Positions 2,991 through 55,480 of a stretch of DNA of 64,000 nucleotides are shown here, piece after piece (position 1 is the stretch's first letter; each line of letters begins with the position of its first letter). The DNA is from Escherichia coli (GTDB lineage: Bacteria > Pseudomonadota > Gammaproteobacteria > Enterobacterales > Enterobacteriaceae), in assembly GCF_016903815.1 (NCBI RefSeq), contig NZ_CP069974.1; one strand, given 5' to 3'. The notes below the pieces were generated by a model. It searched no databases and had not been told where the DNA came from. It saw nothing but the letters and a program-made list of their open reading frames with translations. The position numbers and the translations under genes were made by a program.

Positions 2991-3810
2991 GGCACTGTTG
3001 CAAATAGTCGGTGGTGATAAACTTATCATCCCCTTTTGCTGATGGAGCTGCACATGAACCCATTCAAAGGCCGGCATTTTCAGCGTGACATCATTCTGTG
3101 GGCCGTACGCTGGTACTGCAAATACGGCATCAGTTACCGTGAGCTGCAGGAGATGCTGGCTGAACGCGGAGTGAATGTCGATCACTCCACGATTTACCGC
3201 TGGGTTCAGCGTTATGCGCCTGAAATGGAAAAACGGCTGCGCTGGTACTGGCGTAACCCTTCCGATCTTTGCCCGTGGCACATGGATGAAACCTACGTGA
3301 AGGTCAATGGCCGCTGGGCGTATCTGTACCGGGCCGTCGACAGCCGGGGCCGCACTGTCGATTTTTATCTCTCCTCCCGTCGTAACAGCAAAGCTGCATA
3401 CCGGTTTCTGGGTAAAATCCTCAACAACGTGAAGAAGTGGCAGATCCCACGATTCATCAACACGGATAAAGCGCCCGCCTATGGTCGCGCGCTTGCTCTG
3501 CTCAAACGCGAAGGCCGGTGCCCGTCTGACGTTGAACACCGACAGATTAAGTACCGGAACAACGTGATTGAATGCGATCATGGCAAACTGAAACGGATAA
3601 TCAACGCCACGCTGGGATTTAAATCCATGAAGACGGCTTACGCCACCATCAAAGGTATTGAGGTGATGCGTGCACTACGCAAAGGCCAGGCCTCAGCATT
3701 TTATTATGGTGATCCCCTGGGCGAAATGCGCCTGGTAAGCAGAGTTTTTGAAATGTAAGGCCTTTGAATAAGACAAAAGGCTGCCTCATCGCTAACTTTG
3801 CAACAGTGCC
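2991..3810 (+). mobile_element. IS26 copy 1 (820 bp, 14-bp terminal inverted repeats GGCACTGTTGCAAA)
   Basis: IR at 2991-3004 and inverted copy at 3797-3810; encloses the 240-aa Tnp26 ORF. Confidence 0.95.
3036..3758 (+). CDS. tnpA: IS26 transposase Tnp26
   Basis: 240-aa ORF MLMELHMNPFKGRHFQRDIILWAV...; identical second copy at 9409..10131. Confidence 0.95.
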   Translation: MLMELHMNPFKGRHFQRDIILWAVRWYCKYGISYRELQEMLAERGVNVDHSTIYRWVQRYAPEMEKRLRWYWRNPSDLCPWHMDETYVKVNGRWAYLYRAVDSRGRTVDFYLSSRRNSKAAYRFLGKILNNVKKWQIPRFINTDKAPAYGRALALLKREGRCPSDVEHRQIKYRNNVIECDHGKLKRIINATLGFKSMKTAYATIKGIEVMRALRKGQASAFYYGDPLGEMRLVSRVFEM

Positions 3811-4765
3811 TTAACAAGTTGTTTGGGTGTTCGAATTTCAACAGGTAAGTTAGTTGCTAGAACCCATGGCTCCTTTGCCGACGCTGAGTAGATTTTAGGT
3901 GACGGGTGGTGACAATGAGTCCGTGTCGAGCGCTGATTTTTTCGGCCTTTAGAGCGAGATTTATACAATAGAATTTGGCATGAGATTGGATTGCTTTTAG
4001 TCAGCCTCTTATAGCCTAAAGTCTTTGAGTGACTAGATGACATATCATGTAAGTTGCTGATAGGTTTCCAGTTTTCCGCTCCTAGGTCTGCATATTGTAC
4101 TTTTCCTCTTACTCGACTTAACCAGTACCAACCCAGCTTCTCAACGGATTTATACCATGGCACTTTAAAGCCAGCATCACTGACAATGAGCGGTGTGGTG
4201 TTACTCGGTAGAATGCTCGCAAGGTCGGCTAGAAATTGGTCATGAGCTTTCTTTGAACATTGCTCTGAAAGCGGGAACGCTTTCTCATAAAGAGTAACAG
4301 AACGACCGTGTAGTGCGACTGAAGCTCGCAATACCATAAGTCGTTTTTGCTCACGAATATCAGACCAGTCAACAAGTACAATGGGCATCGTATTGCCCGA
4401 ACAGATAAAGCTAGCATGCCAACGGTATACAGCGAGTCGCTCTTTGTGGAGGTGACGATTACCTAACAATCGGTCGATTCGTTTGATGTTATGTTTTGTT
4501 CTCGCTTTGGTTGGCAGGTTACGGCCAAGTTCGGTAAGAGTGAGAGTTTTACAGTCAAGTAATGCGTGGCAAGCCAACGTTAAGCTGTTGAGTCGTTTTA
4601 AGTGTAATTCGGGGCAGAATTGGTAAAGAGAGTCGTGTAAAATATCGAGTTCGCACATCTTGTTGTCTGATTATTGATTTTTCGCGAAACCATTTGATCA
4701 TATGACAAGATGTGTATCCACCTTAACTTAATGATTTTTACCAAAATCATTAGGGGATTCATCAG
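3811..4765 (-). mobile_element. Truncated IS10 (outside end plus 5' 955 bp), cut by IS26
   Basis: IS10 outside end CTGATGAATCCCCTAATGATTTTGGTAAAAATCATTAAG on minus strand ending at 4765; Tnp N-terminus MCELDILHDSLYQFCPELHLKRLNSLTLACH... (ORF 3792..4658). Confidence 0.8.
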
Positions 4766-5837
4766 AGCATGATATCAAAACGCTCTGAGCTGCTCGTTCG
4801 GCTATGGCGTAGGCCTAGTCCGTAGGCAGGACTTTTCAAGTCTCGGAAGGTTTCTTCAATCTGCATTCGCTTCGAATAGATATTAACAAGTTGTTTGGGT
4901 GTTCGAATTTCAACAGGTAAGTTAGTTGCTAGAACCCATGGCTCCTTTGCCGACGCTGAGTAGATTTTAGGTGACGGGTGGTGACAATGAGTCCGTGTCG
5001 AGCGCTGATTTTTTCGGCCTTTAGAGCGAGATTTATACAATAGAATTTGGCATGAGATTGGATTGCTTTTAGTCAGCCTCTTATAGCCTAAAGTCTTTGA
5101 GTGACTAGATGACATATCATGTAAGTTGCTGATAGGTTTCCAGTTTTCCGCTCCTAGGTCTGCATATTGTACTTTTCCTCTTACTCGACTTAACCAGTAC
5201 CAACCCAGCTTCTCAACGGATTTATACCATGGCACTTTAAAGCCAGCATCACTGACAATGAGCGGTGTGGTGTTACTCGGTAGAATGCTCGCAAGGTCGG
5301 CTAGAAATTGGTCATGAGCTTTCTTTGAACATTGCTCTGAAAGCGGGAACGCTTTCTCATAAAGAGTAACAGAACGACCGTGTAGTGCGACTGAAGCTCG
5401 CAATACCATAAGCCGTTTTTGCTCACGGATATCAGACCAGTCAACAAGTACAATGGGCATCGTATTGCCCGAACAGATAAAGCTAGCATGCCAACGGTAT
5501 ACAGCGAGTCGCTCTTTGTGGAGGTGACGATTACCTAACAATCGGTCGATTCGTTTGATGTTATGTTTTGTTCTCGCTTTGGTTGGCAGGTTACGGCCAA
5601 GTTCGGTAAGAGTGAGAGTTTTACAGTCAAGTAATGCGTGGCAAGCCAACGTTAAGCTGTTGAGTCGTTTTAAGTGTAATTCGGGGCAGAATTGGTAAAG
5701 AGAGTCGTGTAAAATATCGAGTTCGCACATCTTGTTGTCTGATTATTGATTTTTCGCGAAACCATTTGATCATATGACAAGATGTGTATCCACCTTAACT
5801 TAATGATTTTTACCAAAATCATTAGGGGATTCATCAG
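4766..5837 (-). mobile_element. Second truncated IS10 copy (5' 1072 bp) in direct tandem with the first
   Basis: Same IS10 end at 5837; Tnp N-terminal 322 aa (ORF 4762..5730); near-identical to 3811..4765 with 1072-bp period. Confidence 0.8.
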
Positions 5838-8262: not shown

Positions 8263-9390
8263 GTGTCTCAACTCTCCCAGCTTCGAAGCCCCGCCGCCGT
8301 GCAGGCTGCCATCGATGAGTTCGTGCAACTGGGCCGCACGAAATTCCTGGCGCGCCACGGCTACGGCAAGTCCCGCGACTTCCTGGTACGTGATCCGAAG
8401 ACCGGCACCGATTGCGATTCCAAGGCCATCGCCGGTGTGGCCTTCGGCAAGCAATTTCCCGAGCAGGGCCCGCTCACTGCTGACAGCTTCTCCGGTGGCG
8501 AGGCGACCGTCGTTCCGGCGCTGACGCGGCTCGGGTTTCGCATCATTCGCATCGGCGAAGACTGGTCCGAAGAAGAGGTCCTGGCCACGGTCGAAGACTA
8601 TTTCGACATGCTGCGTGCCGAGGCGGCTGGGGAGCCGTACAACAAGTCCGAGCACAACCAGGCACTGCGCCAACTGCTGAACGGTCGCAGCAAGTCTTCA
8701 GTCGAGCTCAAGCACCAGAACATTAGCGCCGTACTCGATGCCCTGGGCCTGCCCTATATCAACGGCTACAAGCCACGCGGCAACAGCCAACTGCTGCTGC
8801 GTAAATCCGTACACGCCTACGTTCTGGAACATCAGCAGACGGTCGGCGCTCTTGTCGATGCCCTGGAGGAGGTAAAACTTCCGGGTGACAAAACCTACCG
8901 AGCGGCTTTGGTAGAACCACCCGCCCGTGAAGTGCTTGTGCGTACCCCGGCATCTCTACGGCAACGCCTACCGCGAAAGTTCGATTATGCCGCTCGCGAT
9001 GAAGCCAACCGCAAGCTGGGCCGGGCAGGGGAGCAGTGGGTGATTGGCTACGAACAGCAACGCCTGACCGAGCTCGGCCACCCAGAGCTTTTTCAGCGGC
9101 TGGATTGGGTGTCCGACACCCAGGGAGACGGTGCGGGGTTCGACATCCTGTCGTTCGAAGAGGACGCCCATGAGCGCTTCATCGAGGTGAAAACCACCAA
9201 TGGCGGGGTAGGCTCGTCTTTCTTGGTCAGCCACAACGAACTCGAATTCTCCAAGGAGGCGGGCGATCAATTCCATCTGTATCGCGTGTTCCAGTTTCGG
9301 GACGGTCCGCGCCTGTTCACGCTACCCGGCGACCTCAGCCAACATGTGCATCTCAAGCCGACGGGCACTGTTGCAAATAGTCGGTGGTGA
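8263..9390 (+). CDS. DUF3883-type protein with PD-(D/E)xK-like C-terminal nuclease fold; 3' end fused into IS26
   Basis: ORF in frame of track ORF 8086..9390; likely start GTG 8263 (RBS AGGAAGG at 8251) or ATG 8242. C-terminal GFDILSFEEDAHERFIEVKTT...LYRVFQF recalled as DUF3883; last ~9 codons derive from the IS26 inverted repeat. Confidence 0.6.
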   Translation: MSQLSQLRSPAAVQAAIDEFVQLGRTKFLARHGYGKSRDFLVRDPKTGTDCDSKAIAGVAFGKQFPEQGPLTADSFSGGEATVVPALTRLGFRIIRIGEDWSEEEVLATVEDYFDMLRAEAAGEPYNKSEHNQALRQLLNGRSKSSVELKHQNISAVLDALGLPYINGYKPRGNSQLLLRKSVHAYVLEHQQTVGALVDALEEVKLPGDKTYRAALVEPPAREVLVRTPASLRQRLPRKFDYAARDEANRKLGRAGEQWVIGYEQQRLTELGHPELFQRLDWVSDTQGDGAGFDILSFEEDAHERFIEVKTTNGGVGSSFLVSHNELEFSKEAGDQFHLYRVFQFRDGPRLFTLPGDLSQHVHLKPTGTVANSRW

Positions 9391-10183
9391 TAAACTTATC
9401 ATCCCCTTTTGCTGATGGAGCTGCACATGAACCCATTCAAAGGCCGGCATTTTCAGCGTGACATCATTCTGTGGGCCGTACGCTGGTACTGCAAATACGG
9501 CATCAGTTACCGTGAGCTGCAGGAGATGCTGGCTGAACGCGGAGTGAATGTCGATCACTCCACGATTTACCGCTGGGTTCAGCGTTATGCGCCTGAAATG
9601 GAAAAACGGCTGCGCTGGTACTGGCGTAACCCTTCCGATCTTTGCCCGTGGCACATGGATGAAACCTACGTGAAGGTCAATGGCCGCTGGGCGTATCTGT
9701 ACCGGGCCGTCGACAGCCGGGGCCGCACTGTCGATTTTTATCTCTCCTCCCGTCGTAACAGCAAAGCTGCATACCGGTTTCTGGGTAAAATCCTCAACAA
9801 CGTGAAGAAGTGGCAGATCCCACGATTCATCAACACGGATAAAGCGCCCGCCTATGGTCGCGCGCTTGCTCTGCTCAAACGCGAAGGCCGGTGCCCGTCT
9901 GACGTTGAACACCGACAGATTAAGTACCGGAACAACGTGATTGAATGCGATCATGGCAAACTGAAACGGATAATCAACGCCACGCTGGGATTTAAATCCA
10001 TGAAGACGGCTTACGCCACCATCAAAGGTATTGAGGTGATGCGTGCACTACGCAAAGGCCAGGCCTCAGCATTTTATTATGGTGATCCCCTGGGCGAAAT
10101 GCGCCTGGTAAGCAGAGTTTTTGAAATGTAAGGCCTTTGAATAAGACAAAAGGCTGCCTCATCGCTAACTTTGCAACAGTGCC
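9364..10183 (+). mobile_element. IS26 copy 2, direct orientation relative to copy 1
   Basis: IRs at 9364-9377 and 10170-10183; tnpA ORF 9409..10131 identical to copy 1. Confidence 0.95.
9409..10131 (+). CDS. tnpA: IS26 transposase Tnp26 (copy 2)
   Basis: Identical 240-aa ORF. Confidence 0.95.
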   Translation: MLMELHMNPFKGRHFQRDIILWAVRWYCKYGISYRELQEMLAERGVNVDHSTIYRWVQRYAPEMEKRLRWYWRNPSDLCPWHMDETYVKVNGRWAYLYRAVDSRGRTVDFYLSSRRNSKAAYRFLGKILNNVKKWQIPRFINTDKAPAYGRALALLKREGRCPSDVEHRQIKYRNNVIECDHGKLKRIINATLGFKSMKTAYATIKGIEVMRALRKGQASAFYYGDPLGEMRLVSRVFEM

Positions 10184-25213: not shown

Positions 25214-25254
25214 CCTGCTTTCTCCTCTCTCTGGTTTTCAGCCCCCATCATCTG

Positions 25255-28206
25255 TTGAGTTTCGGGAGCCGCGGTTTTGACGTTTTGCGGGGACCTGCCT
25301 TTTGTTCCCTCCGGTATTCACCATCACCTTTTTGAGAACCTTCGCCGCAAGGGGCATCACTGCCACGGACGGAAACGACTGTCCGGGGGCAGACCGCAAA
25401 AGTTTTTGCCTGCTTCTGGGCAAAAAGTTTTGCGGGATGTGCATTTCACCCCTGGACTGGCGGAGACGGTTGTGGCTGTCTTTGCCCCCGGCGACAGGGG
25501 CTTAAACAGGTGAATGGCACCGGACAGAACAACGGGCAGGGACCCGCCGCAACGACGTGAAGCGCGGTTTGCGAAACGGCGTTGCCCCTTACATCCCGGC
25601 GGTCTTTTGCCGGGATGCCAGGAGCGCAGGCCACGGCGCGACAGAGGCGGCGCGACCGGAACGGTCGCTGCAAGCCAGGGGTTTTCACGCATCGGACCGT
25701 AGCGACAGCCCGAAACCGCGCCAGCGGGTTCGGCGGAGACTGGCAGGTGCGCCAGCAGCTGCCTGTCGGAGTCGGGCCTGACGACCGGATGCCGCCAGGC
25801 AGCCGGGAGCCGAAGGTGCGCGTGCGACAGGAAGTCGCTTAACGTATTGTTTTACATTGATAAAACCAGCTATCCCATTAGCTGTAGCCTACCGGGACAG
25901 GCGTTGCCGGCAACGGCGGGGTCTGAAGCTCCCGGGACAACGAGAGCCGGGCGTCAGCCCGGGTAATGCCCCGTGAGGGGCTTTACCTTGCTGCAAGCAT
26001 CATGCGGCAGGAGAGCAAGGCTGGTCAGAAGGGTTAACACATGTGAACTGTTGATAAACACCGTTATCGGCAACAGGCCAAAGATGCTGACAGGCCTGAA
26101 CCAAAAGGTACGGGGTCCGGTTGCTACCTCGCGCACAGGGAGCACATGGGCGCAGAGACCCCCGGTGAAGAGACAGAACCCGCCCTGACCCTCTGTATGT
26201 TAAGCGGAACCTGGTAAACCCGTATCGCTGCCTCACAGGCAGGTGAACCGCAAGGAACACTGTTAGCGGTGCGGGCATAGGAGGACGGAAAAAGCGAATG
26301 CCCGGCTGTAATAACCGGGATACGGGGCAGGTTCCCCGACGCGAAAGCGGGCAGACTTCCGTCTGGTCTTTAATTGCATGAAAAGCTGTAAAGCAGTCAA
26401 AAGGATATCAGCGAGATGAATACACACATCAGTGTGTCCACGATACCCCACCCGACAGGCTGGCACACCATAAACTGGAAAGCATGCCATGCCCGGGTGC
26501 GAAAGCTACAGTTACGGATTGCAAAGGCAACCCGACAGCAACAATGGCGGCAGGTCAGAGAACTACAGCGCATCCTCACCCGCTCATTCTCCGGCAAAGC
26601 CGTGGCTGTCAGGCGTGTAACTGAAAATACCGGTAAAAGGACACCCGGTATTGACGGAAAAATATGGCACACACCGAAGGAGAAATGGGAAGGAATATGC
26701 AGCCTGAATCTGTGTGGTTACAGGCCACAGCCACTACGGCGAATACATATCCCAAAATCAAACGGCAAAACGCGACCGCTGGGCATACCCACAATGAGGG
26801 ACCGGGCCATGCAGGCACTGTGGCTGCTGGCTCTGGAACCCGTATCCGAGACCACTGCTGACCATAACAGCTATGGTTTCAGACCAATGCGCAGCACGCA
26901 TGACGCCATTGAGTCCATTTTTCTGCGGATGAGCCAGAAAGTATCGCCCAAATGGATACTGGAGGGCGATATTAAAGGGTGCTTCGATAACATCAGCCAT
27001 GACTGGCTGCTTTCCCATATTCCGATGGACAGGAGACTGCTTAAAAAATGGTTGAAAGCAGGTTACATGGAAAGAGGCGTGTTTAACCATACGAACAGCG
27101 GGACACCGCAGGGAGGCATCATATCCCCTGTTCTCGCCAACATGGCTCTGGACGGACTGGAGAAGGAACTGATGCAAACGTTCAGGAAAAGTGGTTATCA
27201 CAGTGCAAAGCACCAGGTGAATTATGTGAGATATGCTGATGATTTCATCTGTTCAGGCAGCTCCCGTGAATTGCTGGAAAATGAGGTCAGACCACTGATT
27301 GCAGCTTTCATGCGCGAACGAGGGCTGGAACTGTCGGAAGAAAAAACAGCGATCACACATATAGATAAAGGCTTCGACTTTTTAGGGCAGAACGTCAGGA
27401 AGTACAACGGTAAAATGCTGATTAAACCGTCGAAGAAAAACCTGAAGAACTTCCTCTGTAAAGTCAGAGAAATAATTAAACGCAATCCGACGCTCCCGGC
27501 ATGGAAACTGATAGGCCAGCTAAACCCGGTGATCCGGGGATGGGCTACCTATCACCGACACGTCGTGGCGAAAGAAACATTTAATTATGTCGACACCCAA
27601 ATCTGGCGAGCTATATGGCGATGGTGTGTAAGACGGCATCCCCGGAAAGGATTGCGGTGGATCGCCGGACGATACTTCTCCTTTGAAGGCAGGCGCTGGA
27701 TCTTTAAAGCCATAACCCCGGAAGGGAAAATTCTGACACTCTTCCGGGCAATGGAAACACCGATAAAGCGCCATATAAAAATCAAAGGCGAAGCAACACC
27801 ATACACCCCCGGAATGGAAATCTACTTTGAACGTCGTCTGGATCTAATCTGGAAAGGCAAATCAAAGAAGATGAAGACAGTAGTTCAACTCTGGAAGAGG
27901 CAGGGGAAACACTGTCCGCAGTGCGGACAACTCATAACCAACCAGACCGGATGGAATATACATCACCGGATCAGGAAAGTTATGGGCGGCAGTGACGAAC
28001 TGACCAATCTCGAGTTGTTACATCCGAACTGCCACCGACAGTTACACAGCAGGGAAGCCGGTGCTCACCGAAAGCACTTATAAAGGCTTGAGCGGAGTGC
28101 GGGGAAACTCGCACGCTCCGTTCTTAGGGGGCGGCGGCGCAGCAATGTGCCGCTGCTACCCGACCCGGCAGACAGGACAACACTGCAGTAGTCAGAATCA
28201 GAGCAG
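25255..28206 (+). mobile_element. Group II intron, copy A (RT/maturase with HNH endonuclease)
   Basis: Intron-encoded protein ORF plus domain V hairpin GAGCGGAGTGCGGGGAAACTCGCACGCTCCGTTC at 28093-28126; ends approximate (5' start lacks canonical GUGYG, 3' end between 28164 and 28206). Confidence 0.75.
26416..28083 (+). CDS. Group II intron-encoded reverse transcriptase/maturase/HNH endonuclease (555 aa)
   Basis: RT motifs incl. YVRYADDF, maturase X region, C-terminal CPQCG...HH HNH. Confidence 0.9.
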   Translation: MNTHISVSTIPHPTGWHTINWKACHARVRKLQLRIAKATRQQQWRQVRELQRILTRSFSGKAVAVRRVTENTGKRTPGIDGKIWHTPKEKWEGICSLNLCGYRPQPLRRIHIPKSNGKTRPLGIPTMRDRAMQALWLLALEPVSETTADHNSYGFRPMRSTHDAIESIFLRMSQKVSPKWILEGDIKGCFDNISHDWLLSHIPMDRRLLKKWLKAGYMERGVFNHTNSGTPQGGIISPVLANMALDGLEKELMQTFRKSGYHSAKHQVNYVRYADDFICSGSSRELLENEVRPLIAAFMRERGLELSEEKTAITHIDKGFDFLGQNVRKYNGKMLIKPSKKNLKNFLCKVREIIKRNPTLPAWKLIGQLNPVIRGWATYHRHVVAKETFNYVDTQIWRAIWRWCVRRHPRKGLRWIAGRYFSFEGRRWIFKAITPEGKILTLFRAMETPIKRHIKIKGEATPYTPGMEIYFERRLDLIWKGKSKKMKTVVQLWKRQGKHCPQCGQLITNQTGWNIHHRIRKVMGGSDELTNLELLHPNCHRQLHSREAGAHRKHL

Positions 28207-28477
28207 GAAGAAAAAGAGAATAATCACAGGGAAGGTGATGTGATTTCTGACAGGCCATAACCAGAGAAGGCGGGGGAAAAGAACGGGCGCCGCAGGCGCG
28301 CGTTCATCCCCGTTCCTGAAGGGAAACGACCTTCCTGAAGTCAGGTTGTTCATGCCCGTACAACATCAGCAAGGAGAAAGGGGCTACCGGCGAACCAGCA
28401 GCCCCTTTATAAAGGCGCTTCAGTAGTCAGACCAGCATCAGTCCTGAAAAGGCGGGCCTGCGCCCGCCTCCAGGTTG

Positions 28478-36997: not shown

Positions 36998-37039
36998 GAT
37001 GTGCCTCCTTCTGTTGATGTTTTCAGCCCCCATCATCTT

Positions 37040-39991
37040 TTGAGTTTCGGGAGCCGCGGTTTTGACGTTTTGCGGGGACCTGCCTTTTGTTCCCTCCGGT
37101 ATTCACCATCACCTTTTTGAGAACCTTCGCCGCATGGGGCATCACTGCCACGGACGGAAACGACTGTCCGGGGGCAGACCGCAAAAGTTTTTGCCTGCTT
37201 CTGGGCAAAAAGTTTTGCGGGATGTGCATTTCACCCCTGGACTGGCGGAGACGGTTGTGGCTGTCTTTGCCCCCGGCGACAGGGGCTTAAACAGGTGAAT
37301 GGCACCGGACAGAACAACGGGCAGGGACCCGCCGCAACGACGTGAAGCGCGGTTTGCGAAACGGCGTTGCCCCTTACATCCCGGCGGTCTTTTGCCGGGA
37401 TGCCAGGAGCGCAGGCCACGGCGCGACAGAGGCGGCGCGACCGGAACGGTCGCTGCAAGCCAGGGGTTTTCACGCATCGGACCGTAGCGACAGCCCGAAA
37501 CCGCGCCAGCGGGTTCGGCGGAGACTGGCAGGTGCGCCAGCAGCTGCCTGTCGGAGTCGGGCCTGACGACCGGATGCCGCCAGGCAGCCGGGAGCCGAAG
37601 GTGCGCGTGCGACAGGAAGTCGCTTAACGTATTGTTTTACATTGATAAAACCAGCTATCCCATTAGCTGTAGCCTACCGGGACAGGCGTTGCCGGCAACG
37701 GCGGGGTCTGAAGCTCCCGGGACAACGAGAGCCGGGCGTCAGCCCGGGTAATGCCCCGTGAGGGGCTTTACCTTGCTGCAAGCATCATGCGGCAGGAGAG
37801 CAAGGCTGGTCAGAAGGGTTAACACATGTGAACTGTTGATAAACACCGTTATCGGCAACAGGCCAAAGATGCTGACAGGCCTGAACCAAAAGGTACGGGG
37901 TCCGGTTGCTACCTCGCGCACAGGGAGCACATGGGCGCAGAGACCCCCGGTGAAGAGACAGAACCCGCCCTGACCCTCTGTATGTTAAGCGGAACCTGGT
38001 AAACCCGTATCGCTGCCTCACAGGCAGGTGAACCGCAAGGAACACTGTTAGCGGTGCGGGCATAGGAGGACGGAAAAAGCGAATGCCCGGCTGTAATAAC
38101 CGGGATACGGGGCAGGTTCCCCGACGCGAAAGCGGGCAGACTTCCGTCTGGTCTTTAATTGCATGAAAAGCTGTAAAGCAGTCAAAAGGATATCAGCGAG
38201 ATGAATACACACATCAGTGTGTCCACGATACCCCACCCGACAGGCTGGCACACCATAAACTGGAAAGCATGCCATGCCCGGGTGCGAAAGCTACAGTTAC
38301 GGATTGCAAAGGCAACCCGACAGCAACAATGGCGGCAGGTCAGAGAACTACAGCGCATCCTCACCCGCTCATTCTCCGGCAAAGCCGTGGCTGTCAGGCG
38401 TGTAACTGAAAATACCGGTAAAAGGACACCCGGTATTGACGGAAAAATATGGCACACACCGAAGGAGAAATGGGAAGGAATATGCAGCCTGAATCTGTGT
38501 GGTTACAGGCCACAGCCACTACGGCGAATACATATCCCAAAATCAAACGGCAAAACGCGACCGCTGGGCATACCCACAATGAGGGACCGGGCCATGCAGG
38601 CACTGTGGCTGCTGGCTCTGGAACCCGTATCCGAGACCACTGCTGACCATAACAGCTATGGTTTCAGACCAATGCGCAGCACGCATGACGCCATTGAGTC
38701 CATTTTTCTGCGGATGAGCCAGAAAGTATCGCCCAAATGGATACTGGAGGGCGATATTAAAGGGTGCTTCGATAACATCAGCCATGACTGGCTGCTTTCC
38801 CATATTCCGATGGACAGGAGACTGCTTAAAAAATGGTTGAAAGCAGGTTACATGGAAAGAGGCGTGTTTAACCATACGAACAGCGGGACACCGCAGGGAG
38901 GCATCATATCCCCTGTTCTCGCCAACATGGCTCTGGACGGACTGGAGAAGGAACTGATGCAAACGTTCAGGAAAAGTGGTTATCACAGTGCAAAGCACCA
39001 GGTGAATTATGTGAGATATGCTGATGATTTCATCTGTTCAGGCAGCTCCCGTGAATTGCTGGAAAATGAGGTCAGACCACTGATTGCAGCTTTCATGCGC
39101 GAACGAGGGCTGGAACTGTCGGAAGAAAAAACAGCGATCACACATATAGATAAAGGCTTCGACTTTTTAGGGCAGAACGTCAGGAAGTACAACGGTAAAA
39201 TGCTGATTAAACCGTCGAAGAAAAACCTGAAGAACTTCCTCTGTAAAGTCAGAGAAATAATTAAACGCAATCCGACGCTCCCGGCATGGAAACTGATAGG
39301 CCAGCTAAACCCGGTGATCCGGGGATGGGCTACCTATCACCGACACGTCGTGGCGAAAGAAACATTTAATTATGTCGACACCCAAATCTGGCGAGCTATA
39401 TGGCGATGGTGTGTAAGACGGCATCCCCGGAAAGGATTGCGGTGGATCGCCGGACGATACTTCTCCTTTGAAGGCAGGCGCTGGATCTTTAAAGCCATAA
39501 CCCCGGAAGGGAAAATTCTGACACTCTTCCGGGCAATGGAAACACCGATAAAGCGCCATATAAAAATCAAAGGCGAAGCAACACCATACACCCCCGGAAT
39601 GGAAATCTACTTTGAACGTCGTCTGGATCTAATCTGGAAAGGCAAATCAAAGAAGATGAAGACAGTAGTTCAACTCTGGAAGAGGCAGGGGAAACACTGT
39701 CCGCAGTGCGGACAACTCATAACCAACCAGACCGGATGGAATATACATCACCGGATCAGGAAAGTTATGGGCGGCAGTGACGAACTGACCAATCTCGAGT
39801 TGTTACATCCGAACTGCCACCGACAGTTACACAGCAGGGAAGCCGGTGCTCACCGAAAGCACTTATAAAGGCTTGAGCGGAGTGCGGGGAAACTCGCACG
39901 CTCCGTTCTTAGGGGGCGGCGGCGCAGCAATGTGCCGCTGCTACCCGACCCGGCAGACAGGACAACACTGCAGTAGTCAGAATCAGAGCAG
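37040..39991 (+). mobile_element. Group II intron, copy B (identical protein to copy A)
   Basis: Same offsets as copy A (+11785); immediately upstream of and divergent from ssb. Confidence 0.75.
38201..39868 (+). CDS. Group II intron RT/maturase/HNH (copy B)
   Basis: 555 aa, identical to copy A. Confidence 0.9.
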   Translation: MNTHISVSTIPHPTGWHTINWKACHARVRKLQLRIAKATRQQQWRQVRELQRILTRSFSGKAVAVRRVTENTGKRTPGIDGKIWHTPKEKWEGICSLNLCGYRPQPLRRIHIPKSNGKTRPLGIPTMRDRAMQALWLLALEPVSETTADHNSYGFRPMRSTHDAIESIFLRMSQKVSPKWILEGDIKGCFDNISHDWLLSHIPMDRRLLKKWLKAGYMERGVFNHTNSGTPQGGIISPVLANMALDGLEKELMQTFRKSGYHSAKHQVNYVRYADDFICSGSSRELLENEVRPLIAAFMRERGLELSEEKTAITHIDKGFDFLGQNVRKYNGKMLIKPSKKNLKNFLCKVREIIKRNPTLPAWKLIGQLNPVIRGWATYHRHVVAKETFNYVDTQIWRAIWRWCVRRHPRKGLRWIAGRYFSFEGRRWIFKAITPEGKILTLFRAMETPIKRHIKIKGEATPYTPGMEIYFERRLDLIWKGKSKKMKTVVQLWKRQGKHCPQCGQLITNQTGWNIHHRIRKVMGGSDELTNLELLHPNCHRQLHSREAGAHRKHL

Positions 39992-40006
39992 CAGGAAAAA
40001 GAAGAA

Positions 40007-40045
40007 CAGTAGCAGTAGCAGTAGCAGTAGCAGTAGCAGTAGCAG
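40007..40045. repeat. Hexanucleotide microsatellite (CAGTAG)6 plus partial unit
   Basis: Perfect tandem units at 40007-40042; absent from the equivalent flank of intron copies A and C. Confidence 0.9.
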
Positions 40046-42475: not shown

Positions 42476-42713
42476 AATTTAGCCTCTTATGACGTTAATT
42501 AATGAAACCGTAAAGACTGTTCGTGCAGTCTCTGCGGTGTGGATTAAGCAGGTCCCTGACCTGCTTTTTTCATATCTGCGTCTGACGTTCTCCGGTGTTT
42601 TCCTCCTTCTGTTCCTGCGTTCTCATTACCTGCCAGCCGGATGACTGACAGAACACATAAATGCGTATTGCCGGAGCCTGAAATAAATCCTGATTTTTAA
42701 AGAACATCACCCG

Positions 42714-45662
42714 TTGAGTTTCGGGAGCCGCGGTTTTGACGTTTCGCGGGAACCTGCTGCTGTATACCCTGTGGTATGAACTTCACCCGTTTGAGAACCT
42801 TCGCCGCAAGGGGCATCACTGCCACGGCCTGACGCACCTGTCCTGGGCAGAACGCAAAATTTTTTACCGGGTTTTGGGTAAAAAATTTTGTGGGCTGTTC
42901 ATTTACCCTGGACAGTCAGTGCGGCAGGTTGTGGCTGTATCAGCCCCAGGCGACAGGGACTCATACGGGTGTGTGGCACCGGCAGGCAATGAGCAGGGAC
43001 CCGCCGCAACGACGGAGAGCGCGTGCGCGAAACGGCGTTGCCCCTTACATCCCGGCGGCCTTTTGCCGGGATGCCGGGAGCGCAGGCCACGGCGCGACAA
43101 GGGTGGCGCGACCGGAACGGTCGCTGCAAGCCCGGGGTTTTCACGCATCGGACCGTAGCGACAGCCCGAAACCGCGCCAGCGGGTTCGGCGGAGACTGGC
43201 GGGTGCGCCAGCAGCTGCCTGTCGGAGTCGGGCCTGACGACCGGATGCCGCCAGGCAGCCGGGAGCCGAAGGTGCGCGTGCGACAGGAAGTCGCTTAACG
43301 TATTGTTTTACATTGATAAAACCAGCTATCCCATTAGCTGTAGCCTACCGGGACAGGCGTTGCCGGCAACGGCGGGGTCTGAAGCTCCCGGGACAACGAG
43401 AGCCGGGCGTCAGCCCGGGTAATGCCCCGTGAGGGGCTTTACCTTGCTGCAAGCATCATGCGGCAGGAGAGCAAGGCTGGTCAGAAGGGTTAACACATGT
43501 GAACTGTTGATAAACACCGTTATCGGCAACAGGCCAAAGATGCTGACAGGCCTGAACCAAAAGGTACGGGGTCCGGTTGCTACCTCGCGCACAGGGAGCA
43601 CATGGGCGCAGAGACCCCCGGTGAAGAGACAGAACCCGCCCTGACCCTCTGTATGTTAAGCGGAACCTGGTAAACCCGTATCGCTGCCTCACAGGCAGGT
43701 GAACCGCAAGGAACACTGTTAGCGGTGCGGGCATAGGAGGACGGAAAAAGCGAATGCCCGGCTGTAATAACCGGGATACGGGGCAGGTTCCCCGACGCGA
43801 AAGCGGGCAGACTTCCGTCTGGTCTTTAATTGCATGAAAAGCTGTAAAGCAGTCAAAAGGATATCAGCGAGATGAATACACACATCAGTGTGTCCACGAT
43901 ACCCCACCCGACAGGCTGGCACACCATAAACTGGAAAGCATGCCATGCCCGGGTGCGAAAGCTACAGTTACGGATTGCAAAGGCAACCCGACAGCAACAA
44001 TGGCGGCAGGTCAGAGAACTACAGCGCATCCTCACCCGCTCATTCTCCGGCAAAGCCGTGGCTGTCAGGCGTGTAACTGAAAATACCGGTAAAAGGACAC
44101 CCGGTATTGACGGAAAAATATGGCACACACCGAAGGAGAAATGGGAAGGAATATGCAGCCTGAATCTGTGTGGTTACAGGCCACAGCCACTACGGCGAAT
44201 ACATATCCCAAAATCAAACGGCAAAACGCGACCGCTGGGCATACCCACAATGAGGGACCGGGCCATGCAGGCACTGTGGCTGCTGGCTCTGGAACCCGTA
44301 TCCGAGACCACTGCTGACCATAACAGCTATGGTTTCAGACCAATGCGCAGCACGCATGACGCCATTGAGTCCATTTTTCTGCGGATGAGCCAGAAAGTAT
44401 CGCCCAAATGGATACTGGAGGGCGATATTAAAGGGTGCTTCGATAACATCAGCCATGACTGGCTGCTTTCCCATATTCCGATGGACAGGAGACTGCTTAA
44501 AAAATGGTTGAAAGCAGGTTACATGGAAAGAGGCGTGTTTAACCATACGAACAGCGGGACACCGCAGGAAGGCATCATATCCCCTGTTCTCGCCAACATG
44601 GCTCTGGACGGACTGGAGAAGGAACTGATGCAAACGTTCAGGAAAAGTGGTTATCACAGTGCAAAGCACCAGGTGAATTATGTGAGATATGCTGATGATT
44701 TCATCTGTTCAGGCAGCTCCCGTGAATTGCTGGAAAATGAGGTCAGACCACTGATTGCAGCTTTCATGCGCGAACGAGGGCTGGAACTGTCGGAAGAAAA
44801 AACAGCGATCACACATATAGATAAAGGCTTCGACTTTTTAGGGCAGAACGTCAGGAAGTACAACGGTAAAATGCTGATTAAACCGTCGAAGAAAAACCTG
44901 AAGAACTTCCTCTGTAAAGTCAGAGAAATAATTAAACGCAATCCGACGCTCCCGGCATGGAAACTGATAGGCCAGCTAAACCCGGTGATCCGGGGATGGG
45001 CTACCTATCACCGACACGTCGTGGCGAAAGAAACATTTAATTATGTCGACACCCAAATCTGGCGAGCTATATGGCGATGGTGTGTAAGACGGCATCCCCG
45101 GAAAGGATTGCGGTGGATCGCCGGACGATACTTCTCCTTTGAAGGCAGGCGCTGGATCTTTAAAGCCATAACCCCGGAAGGGAAAATTCTGACACTCTTC
45201 CGGGCAATGGAAACACCGATAAAGCGCCATATAAAAATCAAAGGCGAAGCAACACCATACACCCCCGGAATGGAAATCTACTTTGAACGTCGTCTGGATC
45301 TAATCTGGAAAGGCAAATCAAAGAAGATGAAGACAGTAGTTCAACTCTGGAAGAGGCAGGGGAAACACTGTCCGCAGTGCGGACAACTCATAACCAACCA
45401 GACCGGATGGAATATACATCACCGGATCAGGAAAGTTATGGGCGGCAGTGACGAACTGACCAATCTCGAGTTGTTACATCCGAACTGCCACCGACAGTTA
45501 CACAGCAGGGAAGCCGGTGCTCACCGAAAGCACTTATAAAGGCTTGAGCGGAGTGCGGGGAAACTCGCACGCTCCGTTCTTAGGGGGCGGCGGCGCAGCA
45601 ATGTGCCGCTGCTACCCGACCCGGCAGACAGAACAACACTGCAGTAGTCAGAATCAGAGCAG
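42714..45662 (+). mobile_element. Group II intron, copy C (diverged 5' ~330 nt, 1 aa difference in protein)
   Basis: Same architecture; protein differs Q->E in GTPQ(G/E)GIISP. Confidence 0.75.
43872..45539 (+). CDS. Group II intron RT/maturase/HNH (copy C)
   Basis: 555 aa. Confidence 0.9.
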   Translation: MNTHISVSTIPHPTGWHTINWKACHARVRKLQLRIAKATRQQQWRQVRELQRILTRSFSGKAVAVRRVTENTGKRTPGIDGKIWHTPKEKWEGICSLNLCGYRPQPLRRIHIPKSNGKTRPLGIPTMRDRAMQALWLLALEPVSETTADHNSYGFRPMRSTHDAIESIFLRMSQKVSPKWILEGDIKGCFDNISHDWLLSHIPMDRRLLKKWLKAGYMERGVFNHTNSGTPQEGIISPVLANMALDGLEKELMQTFRKSGYHSAKHQVNYVRYADDFICSGSSRELLENEVRPLIAAFMRERGLELSEEKTAITHIDKGFDFLGQNVRKYNGKMLIKPSKKNLKNFLCKVREIIKRNPTLPAWKLIGQLNPVIRGWATYHRHVVAKETFNYVDTQIWRAIWRWCVRRHPRKGLRWIAGRYFSFEGRRWIFKAITPEGKILTLFRAMETPIKRHIKIKGEATPYTPGMEIYFERRLDLIWKGKSKKMKTVVQLWKRQGKHCPQCGQLITNQTGWNIHHRIRKVMGGSDELTNLELLHPNCHRQLHSREAGAHRKHL

Positions 45663-46040
45663 CAGATAAAGGAACAACAACATCAGGAACAGTTCCATAA
45701 CATAAGAAAGAAACACTCCTGAGTCAGACACATCACAGACGGGAAGGGTAACGGGCGACGCGCCAGCGTGGCCCGCTTCCCTTCCGGCAGGCGTCAGCCT
45801 GCCAGGGGTTTTCGCGCGGACTGACAGGCGGCCTCCACCGCCTGCCCCTGTATCACCTGTTTCTGCTACCCTGTAAGATGTAGTGACCGCCCAGGAAAAC
45901 CGCCTGCTGATTCGCCACAAAATCGCAGATTTCATCAACAATCTGCGCGGTGGTGAGCGGTTTCTGCCCCATTTCACGACGCCGCGCATTAATCACGGCC
46001 CTGTAATTACGCAGAATTTCGCGGGTTTCTGTGCTGATAT

Positions 46041-50888: not shown

Positions 50889-51209
50889 CTGTAACCGGGC
50901 GACCGCATACGAATGCAGGTGCGGCCCCGAAGCCGCAGCGCGTGGAGGAGGAACGACGAAACGTGACCGGGTGAGGAGGCCGGCGACAGCGACACACTTG
51001 CATCGGATGCAGCCCGGTTAACGTGCCGGCACGGCCTGGGTAACCAGGTATTTTGTCCACATAACCGTGCGCAAAATGTTGTGGATAAGCAGGACACAGC
51101 AGCAATCCACAGCAGGCATACAACCGCACACCGAGGTTACTCCGTTCTACAGGTTACGACGACATGTCAATACTTGCCCTTGACAGGCATTGATGGAATC
51201 GTAGTCTCA

Positions 51210-51600
51210 CGCTGATAGTCTGATCGACAATACAAGTGGGACCGTGGTCCCAGACCGATAATCAGACCGACAACACGAGTGGGATCGTGGTCCCAGACTA
51301 ATAATCAGACCGACGATACGAGTGGGACCGTGGTCCCAGACTAATAATCAGACCGACGATACGAGTGGGACCGTGGTCCCAGACTAATAATCAGACCGAC
51401 GATACGAGTGGGACCATGGTCCCAGACTAATAATCAGACCGACGATACGAGTGGGACCATGGTCCCAGACTAATAATCAGACCGACGATACGAGTGGGAC
51501 CGTGGTCCCAGACTAATAATCAGACCGACGATACGAGTGGGACCGTGGTCCCAGTCTGATTATCAGACCGACGATACAAGTGGAACAGTGGGCCCAGAGA
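51210..51600. repeat. sopC: sopC centromere: 43-bp direct repeats each with TGGGACCGTGGTCCCA inverted motif (8 good units plus 1 degenerate)
   Basis: Period 43 bp from 51236; downstream of sopB. Confidence 0.9.
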
Positions 51601-51685
51601 GAATATTCAGGCCAGTTATGCTTTCTGGCCTGTAACAAAGGACATTAAGTAAAGACAGATAAACGTAGACTAAAACGTGGTCGCA

Positions 51686-52657
51686 TCAGGGTGCTGGCTT
51701 TTCAAGTTCCTTAAGAATGGCCTCAATTTTCTCTATACACTCAGTTGGAACACGAGACCTGTCCAGGTTAAGCACCATTTTATCGCCCTTATACAATACT
51801 GTCGCTCCAGGAGCAAACTGATGTCGTGAGCTTAAACTAGTTCTTGATGCAGATGACGTTTTAAGCACAGAAGTTAAAAGAGTGATAACTTCTTCAGCTT
51901 CAAATATCACCCCAGCTTTTTTCTGCTCATGAAGGTTAGATGCCTGCTGCTTAAGTAATTCCTCTTTATCTGTAAAGGCTTTTTGAAGTGCATCACCTGA
52001 CCGGGCAGATAGTTCACCGGGGTGAGAAAAAAGAGCAACAACTGATTTAGGCAATTTGGCTGTGTTGATACAGCGGGTAATAATCTTACGTGAAATATTT
52101 TCCGCATCAGCCAGCGCAGAAATATTTCCAGCAAATTCATTCTGCAATCGGCTTGCATAACGCTGACCACGTTCATAAGCACTTGTTGGGCGATAATCGT
52201 TACCCAATCTGGATAATGCAGCCATCTGCTCATCATCCAGCTCGCCAACCAGAACACGATAATCACTTTCGGTAAGTGCAGCAGCTTTACGACGGCGACT
52301 CCCATCGGCAATTTCTATGACACCAGATACTCTTCGACCGAACGCCGGTGTCTGTTGACCAGTCAGTAGAAAAGAAGGGATGAGATCATCCAGTGAGTCC
52401 TCAGTAAGCAGCTCCTGGTCACGTTCATTACCTGACCATACCCGAGAGGTCTTCTCAACACTATCACCCCGGAGCACTTCAAGAGTAAACTTCACATCCC
52501 GACCACATACAGGCAAAGTAATGGCATTACCGCGAGCCATTACTCCTACGCGCGCAATTAACGAATCCACCATCGGGGCAGCTGGTGTCGATAACGAAGT
52601 ATCTCCAACCGGTTGAGTATTGAGCGTATGTTTTGGAATAACAGGCGCACGCTTCAT
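51686..52657 (-). CDS. sopB: SopB (ParB partition protein)
   Basis: 323-aa ORF. Confidence 0.9.
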
Positions 52658-53832
52658 TATCTAATCTCCCAGCGTGGTTTAATCAGACGATCGAAAATTT
52701 CATTGCAGACAGGTTCCCAAATAGAAAGAGCATTTCTCCAGGCACCAGTTGAAGAGCGTTGATCAATGGCCTGTTCAAAAACAGTTCTCATCCGGATCTG
52801 ACCTTTACCAACTTCATCCGTTTCACGTACAACATTTTTTAGAACCATGCTTCCCCAGGCATCCCGAATTTGCTCCTCCATCCACGGGGACTGAGAGCCA
52901 TTACTATTGCTGTATTTGGTAAGCAAAATACGTACATCAGGCTCGAACCCTTTAAGATCAACGTTCTTGAGCAGATCACGAAGCATATCGAAAAACTGCA
53001 GTGCGGAGGTGTAGTCAAACAACTCAGCAGGCGTGGGAACAATCAGCACATCAGCAGCACATACGACATTAATCGTGCCGATACCCAGGTTAGGCGCGCT
53101 GTCAATAACTATGACATCATAGTCATGAGCAACAGTTTCAATGGCCAGTCGGAGCATCAGGTGTGGATCGGTGGGCAGTTTACCTTCATCAAATTTGCCC
53201 ATTAACTCAGTTTCAATACGGTGCAGAGCCAGACAGGAAGGAATAATGTCAAGCCCAGGCCAGCAAGTGGGCTTTATTGCATAAGTGACATCGTCCTTTT
53301 CCCCAAGATAGAAAGGCAGGAGAGTGTCTTCTGCATGAATATGAAGATCTGGTACCCATCCGTGATACATTGAGGCTGTTCCCTGGGGGTCGTTACCTTC
53401 CACGAGCAAAACACGTAGCCCCTTCAGAGCCAGATCCTGAGCAAGATGAACAGAAACTGAGGTTTTGTAAACGCCACCTTTATGGGCAGCAACCCCGATC
53501 ACCGGTGGAAATACGTCTTCAGCACGTCGCAATCGCGTACCAAACACATCACGCATATGATTAATTTGTTCAATTGTATAACCAACACGTTGCTCAACCC
53601 GTCCTCGAATTTCCATATCCGGGTGCGGTAGTCGCCCTGCTTTCTCGGCATCTCTGATAGCCTGAGAAGAAACCCCAACTAAATCCGCTGCTTCACCTAT
53701 TCTCCAGCGCCGGGTTATTTTCCTCGCTTCCGGGCTGTCATCATTAAACTGTGCAATGGCGATAGCCTTCGTCATTTCATGACCAGCGTTTATGCACTGG
53801 TTAAGTGTTTCCATGAGTTTCATTCTGAACAT
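52657..53832 (-). CDS. sopA: SopA (ParA partition ATPase)
   Basis: 391 aa with deviant Walker [14 protein letters not shown]. Confidence 0.9.
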
Positions 53833-54199
53833 CCTTTAATCATTGCTTTGCGTTTTTTTATTAAATCTTGCAATTTACTGCAAAGCAACAACAAAATCGC
53901 AAAGTCATCAAAAAACCGCAAAGTTGTTTAAAATAAGAGCAACACTACAAAAGGAGATAAGAAGAGCACATACCTCAGTCACTTATTATCACTAGCGCTC
54001 GCCGCAGCCGTGTAACCGAGCATAGCGAGCGAACTGGCGAGGAAGCAAAGAAGAACTGTTCTGTCAGATAGCTCTTACGCTCAGCGCAAGAAGAAATATC
54101 CACCGTGGGAAAAACTCCAGGTAGAGGTACACACGCGGATAGCCAATTCAGAGTAATAAACTGTGATAATCAACCCTCATCAATGATGACGAACTAACC

Positions 54200-54410
54200 C
54201 CCGATATCAGGTCACATGACGAAGGGAAAGAGAAGGAAATCAACTGTGACAAACTGCCCTCAAATTTGGCTTCCTTAAAAATTACAGTTCAAAAAGTATG
54301 AGAAAATCCATGCAGGCTGAAGGAAACAGCAAAACTGTGACAAATTACCCTCAGTAGGTCAGAACAAATGTGACGAACCACCCTCAAATCTGTGACAGAT
54401 AACCCTCAGA
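54200..54410. repeat. incC: incC iterons (TGTGACAAATTGCCCTCAG-type direct repeats)
   Basis: Repeats at ~54244, 54335, 54369, 54390. Confidence 0.8.

Positions 54411-55480
<1,070 letters not shown>

Follow-up and report, generated by a model that had tools for sequence, protein, structure and literature searches.

A widespread ten-unit sopC allele in the RepFIA/sopABC module of an Escherichia coli IncF plasmid

The stretch of DNA analysed here, 64,000 nucleotides of Escherichia coli contig NZ_CP069974.1 (assembly GCF_016903815.1) and hereafter called the window, is part of an IncF multireplicon plasmid. Its positions 39001-64000 are 99.9% identical to plasmid pM105_mF, and F-type tra genes are located within positions 1-25000. 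On the minus strand, repE, the putative incC iterons, the sop promoter, sopA, sopB and sopC follow one another in the order known from plasmid F. The RepFIA initiator gene repE (54411-55166, minus strand) was identified by NCBIfam PRK13742 (E=3e-162). Iteron-like repeats (GAGGGnnnnTTnGTCACAG) were observed at about 54160-54420, in the interval that separates the repE stop codon from the sop promoter, and are consistent with incC of RepFIA. The sop promoter/operator region (53846-53923, minus strand) displays three copies of the hexamer CTTTGC on the gene strand with a spacing of 19 bp (53918, 53899 and 53880) and an inverted copy at 53846, and the region is called as a 19-bp repeat by TRF. We take this hexamer to be the SopA operator motif, as in the F sop promoter. 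The Walker-type partition ATPase gene sopA (52657-53823, minus strand; NCBIfam equivalog PRK13705, E=3e-263) encodes a protein identical to F SopA across the 388 amino acids annotated in F, and the mechanically predicted open reading frame begins three codons further upstream, at 53832. It is followed by sopB (51686-52657, minus strand; NCBIfam equivalog PRK13698, E=4e-192), which encodes the centromere-binding ParB protein of 323 amino acids. This SopB corresponds to WP_000817036 and differs from F SopB by two substitutions, E18G and A88S (322 of 324 positions identical, counting the stop).

A tandem array begins 62 bp beyond the sopB stop codon at 51686. TRF reported it at 51225-51598 with a period of 43 bp, 8.7 copies, 94% matches, 0% indels and a score of 636, and the spacing of 43 bp was also returned by a repeat finder. 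With up to three mismatches allowed, the SopB box TGGGACCNNGGTCCCA recurs every 43 bp exactly, the first copy being at 51237 and the last at 51581; there are seven perfect copies, one copy with one mismatch (TGGGATC, at 51280) and one with three (at 51581). When the window was shuffled 100 times, this number of box matches was never reached. Because the array lies directly downstream of sopA-sopB on the minus strand, we identify it as sopC, in agreement with the earlier note. It displays the traits of F-type sopC from the Sop subfamily of type Ia ParABS systems, namely direct repeats of about 43 bp with a 16-bp inverted repeat in each unit, placed in cis directly downstream of the sopA-sopB operon.

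In order to count units in the same way throughout, the arrays of the window and of F were dissected in one fixed register, in which a 16-bp box and a 27-bp spacer make up the 43-bp unit. In this register the whole array of the window spans 51194-51623 (430 bp) and comprises 10 units, of which eight are well conserved and two are degenerate ends. The eight good units (51237-51580, minus strand), delimited by TRF, box search and register, are of the types B, C, D, D, E, E, D and F. Seven of their boxes match TGGGACC-PuPy-GGTCCCA perfectly and the eighth is the TGGGATC variant at 51280. In the adjacent units at 51409 and 51452 the centre of the box is AT instead of GT (AC in gene orientation). 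Read in gene orientation, every good box has a Pu-Py centre, either AC or AT. The first unit in plus-strand reading (51194-51236, minus strand) is farthest from sopB; its box TGGAATCGTAGTCTCA has four mismatches, the unit as a whole is 72% identical to the consensus, and it is probably not bound by SopB. The tenth unit (51581-51623, minus strand) is nearest to sopB and combines a box with three mismatches (TGGAACAGTGGGCCCA) with a diverged spacer. The description of the array in the earlier note as eight clean 43-bp units and a degenerate one matches our box search. Its total of about nine units is correct as a count of boxes, but the fixed register adds the degenerate unit at 51194-51236 and brings the total to 10.

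Between flanks identical to those of the window, the array of plasmid F (NC_002483) measures 516 bp and holds 12 units, which are 10 good units and two degenerate ends. Measured like for like, the window therefore has two units (86 bp) fewer than F, with 10 against 12 units in all and eight against 10 good ones, and it departs from the F archetype in both number and length. The F array yields 10.7 copies with TRF and 11 boxes at up to three mismatches; F shows 11 boxes and not 12 because its end unit, with the box TGGAATCGTAGTCTCA and its four mismatches, escapes the search. A count of boxes at this threshold (nine in the window, 11 in F) was for this reason rejected as a measure of array length, as it misses the 12 of the literature. 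The earlier note was thus right that the array is shorter than that of F, whereas its deficit of nine against 12 mixed two conventions: the 12 of F holds when both degenerate ends are counted, and not under the convention that the note had applied to the window. Within the F RefSeq record (NC_002483, 51700-53700) we observed nine perfect SopB boxes and one variant, while F is listed with eight consensus boxes and two key-position mutations in Table 1 of Pillet (2011; PMC3177203). Since the two tallies differ, the F/mini-F sequence versions appear to be one box substitution apart.

To compare alleles, each distinct 43-mer was given one letter and the arrays were written as ordered unit strings. 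This gives ABCDDEEDFG for the window and ABCDDDEHDDFG for F. The two arrays share the 43-bp unit, the 16-bp SopB box, the position downstream of sopAB and a degenerate unit at either end, and their first three and final two units are the same. Their interiors differ in order, with DDEED in the window against DDDEHDD in F. Two adjacent units with an AT centre (E) are present in the window where F has one, and the window is devoid of the internal H unit of F, which carries the spacer GTCTGATTATCAG. With two E units and no H unit, the array of the window could not have arisen from that of F by a single deletion, and a derivation by one deletion was rejected on these grounds.

The same allele was found in other plasmids. 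In pU302L of Salmonella Typhimurium (NC_006816) sopC is identical in 430 of 430 bases and the window segment 50900-51900 is present exactly; in pEC958 of the ST131 lineage (NZ_HG941719) sopC is likewise identical in 430 of 430 bases and the 3-kb sopC-sopB-sopA stretch is exact. Both encode SopB WP_000817036, as in the window, and the three plasmids show no difference within the locus, while their backbones and cargo differ. The window thus carries the pU302L-type 10-repeat allele in number, order and sequence of units. For pU302L, Table 1 of Pillet (2011; PMC3177203) gives 10 repeats of 43 bp, seven consensus boxes, no canonical ends and one key-position mutation, which is exactly the profile of the window. 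The same 430-bp array is carried by pEGY3. When the segment 50900-51900, containing the array and its flanks, was compared with PLSDB, it matched at 100% in one gap-free piece in all of the first 40 records listed, and the same perfect match was found in 15 of 60 records spaced evenly across 2343 matching ones, from which we estimate about 590 plasmids with the identical allele. The variant SopB WP_000817036 was found in pEGY3, pM105_mF, pU302L, pEC958 and GN03507, covering alleles of 10 and eight units, and SopB WP_000817031 is carried by F and by the fetched examples with four, five, seven, nine and 15 units. MOB-suite typing in PLSDB lists IncFIB, IncFII and IncQ1 for pEGY3, pM105_mF and pU302L, and no IncFIA, although their repE (RepFIA) and sopABC are identical to those of the window.

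These data bear on the contraction by recombination that the earlier note had considered, in its narrow form a recent loss from an F-like sopC of 12 units that is private to the plasmid of the window. The array is indeed 86 bp shorter than that of F between identical flanks, and shrinkage by unequal crossover does occur in the family, where an allele of eight units is derived from one of 10. Some 590 independent plasmids, pU302L and pEC958 among them, nevertheless carry the identical allele, which is linked to a distinct SopB variant and whose unit string is out of reach of one deletion from ABCDDDEHDDFG. We consider such a private contraction highly improbable. The reduced number is not peculiar to this plasmid, as the references of its own lineage share it. 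An assembly artefact, in which a longer array collapsed during short-read assembly, was also considered, as near-identical tandem units of 43 bp can collapse in this way. The array, however, is merely 430 bp long and contains distinguishable variants (B, C, E and F) in a fixed order, and exactly this order of units is shared by hundreds of complete plasmids that were assembled independently, as well as by about half of the RefSeq complete genomes sampled. We regard a collapsed assembly as extremely improbable. According to our analysis, the array is, with a high degree of confidence, the functional sopC that belongs to the RepFIA/sopABC module in a multireplicon IncF plasmid, in the form of the widespread 10-repeat allele known from pU302L and pEC958. 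The 10-unit length would have been inherited with the lineage bearing SopB WP_000817036, without a recent loss from the 12-unit F array. This exact allele is already known: it was published in 2011 and entered the databases with pU302L.

In order to place the allele within the natural range of array lengths, the two 300-bp flanks were joined with the array removed (600 nt) and used as a query, and the span in each record minus 600 was taken as array length. This method recovers the published counts of 12 units for F, six for pO157 and 10 for pU302L (Pillet, 2011, Table 1; PMC3177203). A BLAST search with the whole 1001-bp segment could not be interpreted as an allele count, with at least 5000 records matched and related Klebsiella sopC arrays among them. 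Both flanks were present in 1648 PLSDB records and in 1551 of 5426 RefSeq complete E. coli genomes, and a systematic sample of 58 was drawn from each, so that the frequencies are those of samples from public databases that over-represent clinical ST131-type plasmids. Ten units were found in 21 PLSDB and 30 RefSeq records, and this is the modal class in both samples, with 36% (Wilson 95% CI 25-49%) and 52% (39-64%), respectively. Arrays of six units (14 in PLSDB, 10 in RefSeq) and seven units (nine and 13) came next. Four and five units were each found once in PLSDB and twice in RefSeq, whereas eight (two records), nine (four), 11 (four) and 15 units (one) were found in the PLSDB sample and in none of the 58 RefSeq records. 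The 12 units of F account for about 2% of each sample (one record in each), and the single RefSeq record of this length is 10.5 kb in size with its source given as 'Laboratory developed'. Of 1602 matches to the sopC flanks in RefSeq E. coli, 31 were located on chromosomes and not on plasmids, and these may represent integrated F-like elements.

Twelve repeats had been taken as canonical, yet F is merely the type plasmid, and repeat numbers from three to 17, among them the 10-repeat allele, are reported across the family (Pillet, 2011; PMC3177203). The number 12 thus describes plasmid F and not IncFIA in general, while 10 is the commonest number in the sampled isolates. Repeat counts need to follow one convention for the degenerate end units if they are to be compared.

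The comparison of unit strings shows where length varies. In alleles of four to 15 units the ends (A/I, B ... F, G) are conserved, and the alleles differ in how many D, E and H units lie between them. The allele of pO157 (six units) and those of four, five, seven, eight, nine, 11 and 15 units have the flanks, ends and box of the window, but their interior units differ from those of the window in number and order, and some alleles include the hybrid units J (B/D), K (D/F) and N (E/F). Such hybrid units in the shorter alleles point to misaligned units that underwent unequal crossover or slippage. The eight-unit allele of GN03507 is exactly what one crossover between the seventh and ninth units would make of the window allele, and the 11-unit allele of pPK8566 equals the window allele with one additional D unit. 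As both are derivable from the allele of the window, the latter behaves as the parental state in its lineage. Change of repeat number by recombination or slippage is therefore real in this family, in line with the recombination that the earlier note had proposed, but it does not make the array of the window a private contraction. Judged by their unit strings, the natural IncFIA-type sopC alleles are one polymorphic series. We posit that array length is one state of a polymorphic repeat, which would change by unequal recombination or replication slippage among interior units that are nearly identical, with the diverged units at the ends remaining fixed. The ordered unit string may also provide a cheap lineage marker for IncFIA modules. 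A sopC of 12 units with the same flanks was observed in pRHB30-C10_3 (CP057295.1); it reads AOPQRRSTSUKV and contains two internal TGGAACC boxes. Nearly all of its units are of different sequence types, in contrast to the other alleles with their homogenised arrays, and it clearly belongs, by its sequence, to a divergent lineage.

SopB needs no more than the 16-bp inverted repeat for its specificity, and the first and last repeats are probably not bound by SopB, degenerate ends being typical of the family (PMC3177203). By analogy with this family, SopB dimers would bind all eight good units of the window at their inverted repeats and spread from these boxes onto the flanking DNA, building a partition complex on which SopA-ATP would act to position and segregate the plasmid copies. 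A TraDIS study of pEC958 has identified sopAB as the sole partition system of that plasmid and as needed for its maintenance (PMC4398462). As the pEC958 locus is identical to that of the window, this indirectly suggests that the allele works in vivo. According to PMC3177203, which refers to Biek and Shi (1994) and Lane (1987), a single repeat is all that a functional partition complex requires, and the number of sopC repeats is described there as 'not an important feature'. With eight good sites where a single one suffices, a stability defect is not expected, and the 10-unit length should be without effect on plasmid stability. The repeat number of sopC is a known and functionally tolerant polymorphism that matters very little.

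It could still be asked whether the clusters at six, seven and 10 units and the rarity of 12 reflect selection and not hitch-hiking with successful plasmid lineages. Array length or the doubled AT-centre unit might in that case, for example, tune SopB titration, the size of the partition complex or the incompatibility that sopC mediates between IncFIA replicons residing in the same cell. Clonal expansion of a few lineages, such as those of pO157 and the ST131-type plasmids, explains the clusters equally well, and we consider selection for length to be very unlikely.

Several further repeats were observed in the window. An element of about 2.98 kb is present in three direct copies that are 97-99.8% identical (25234-28220, 37019-40006 and 42705-45679) in the leading region, and ltrA genes for a group II intron reverse transcriptase/maturase are annotated in the fetched part of the corresponding region of pM105_mF, the best-matching plasmid. 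A perfect CAGTAG hexanucleotide microsatellite of 6.5 copies (40007-40045) lies immediately next to the end of the second copy. The F-type tra region contains two internal duplications, of positions 2991-3810 at 9364-10183 (100% identity) and of positions 3811-4765 at 4883-5837 (99.8%). The best matches to positions 1-25000 cover about 80% of this segment in many pieces, and this patchy coverage suggests IS-mediated rearrangement.
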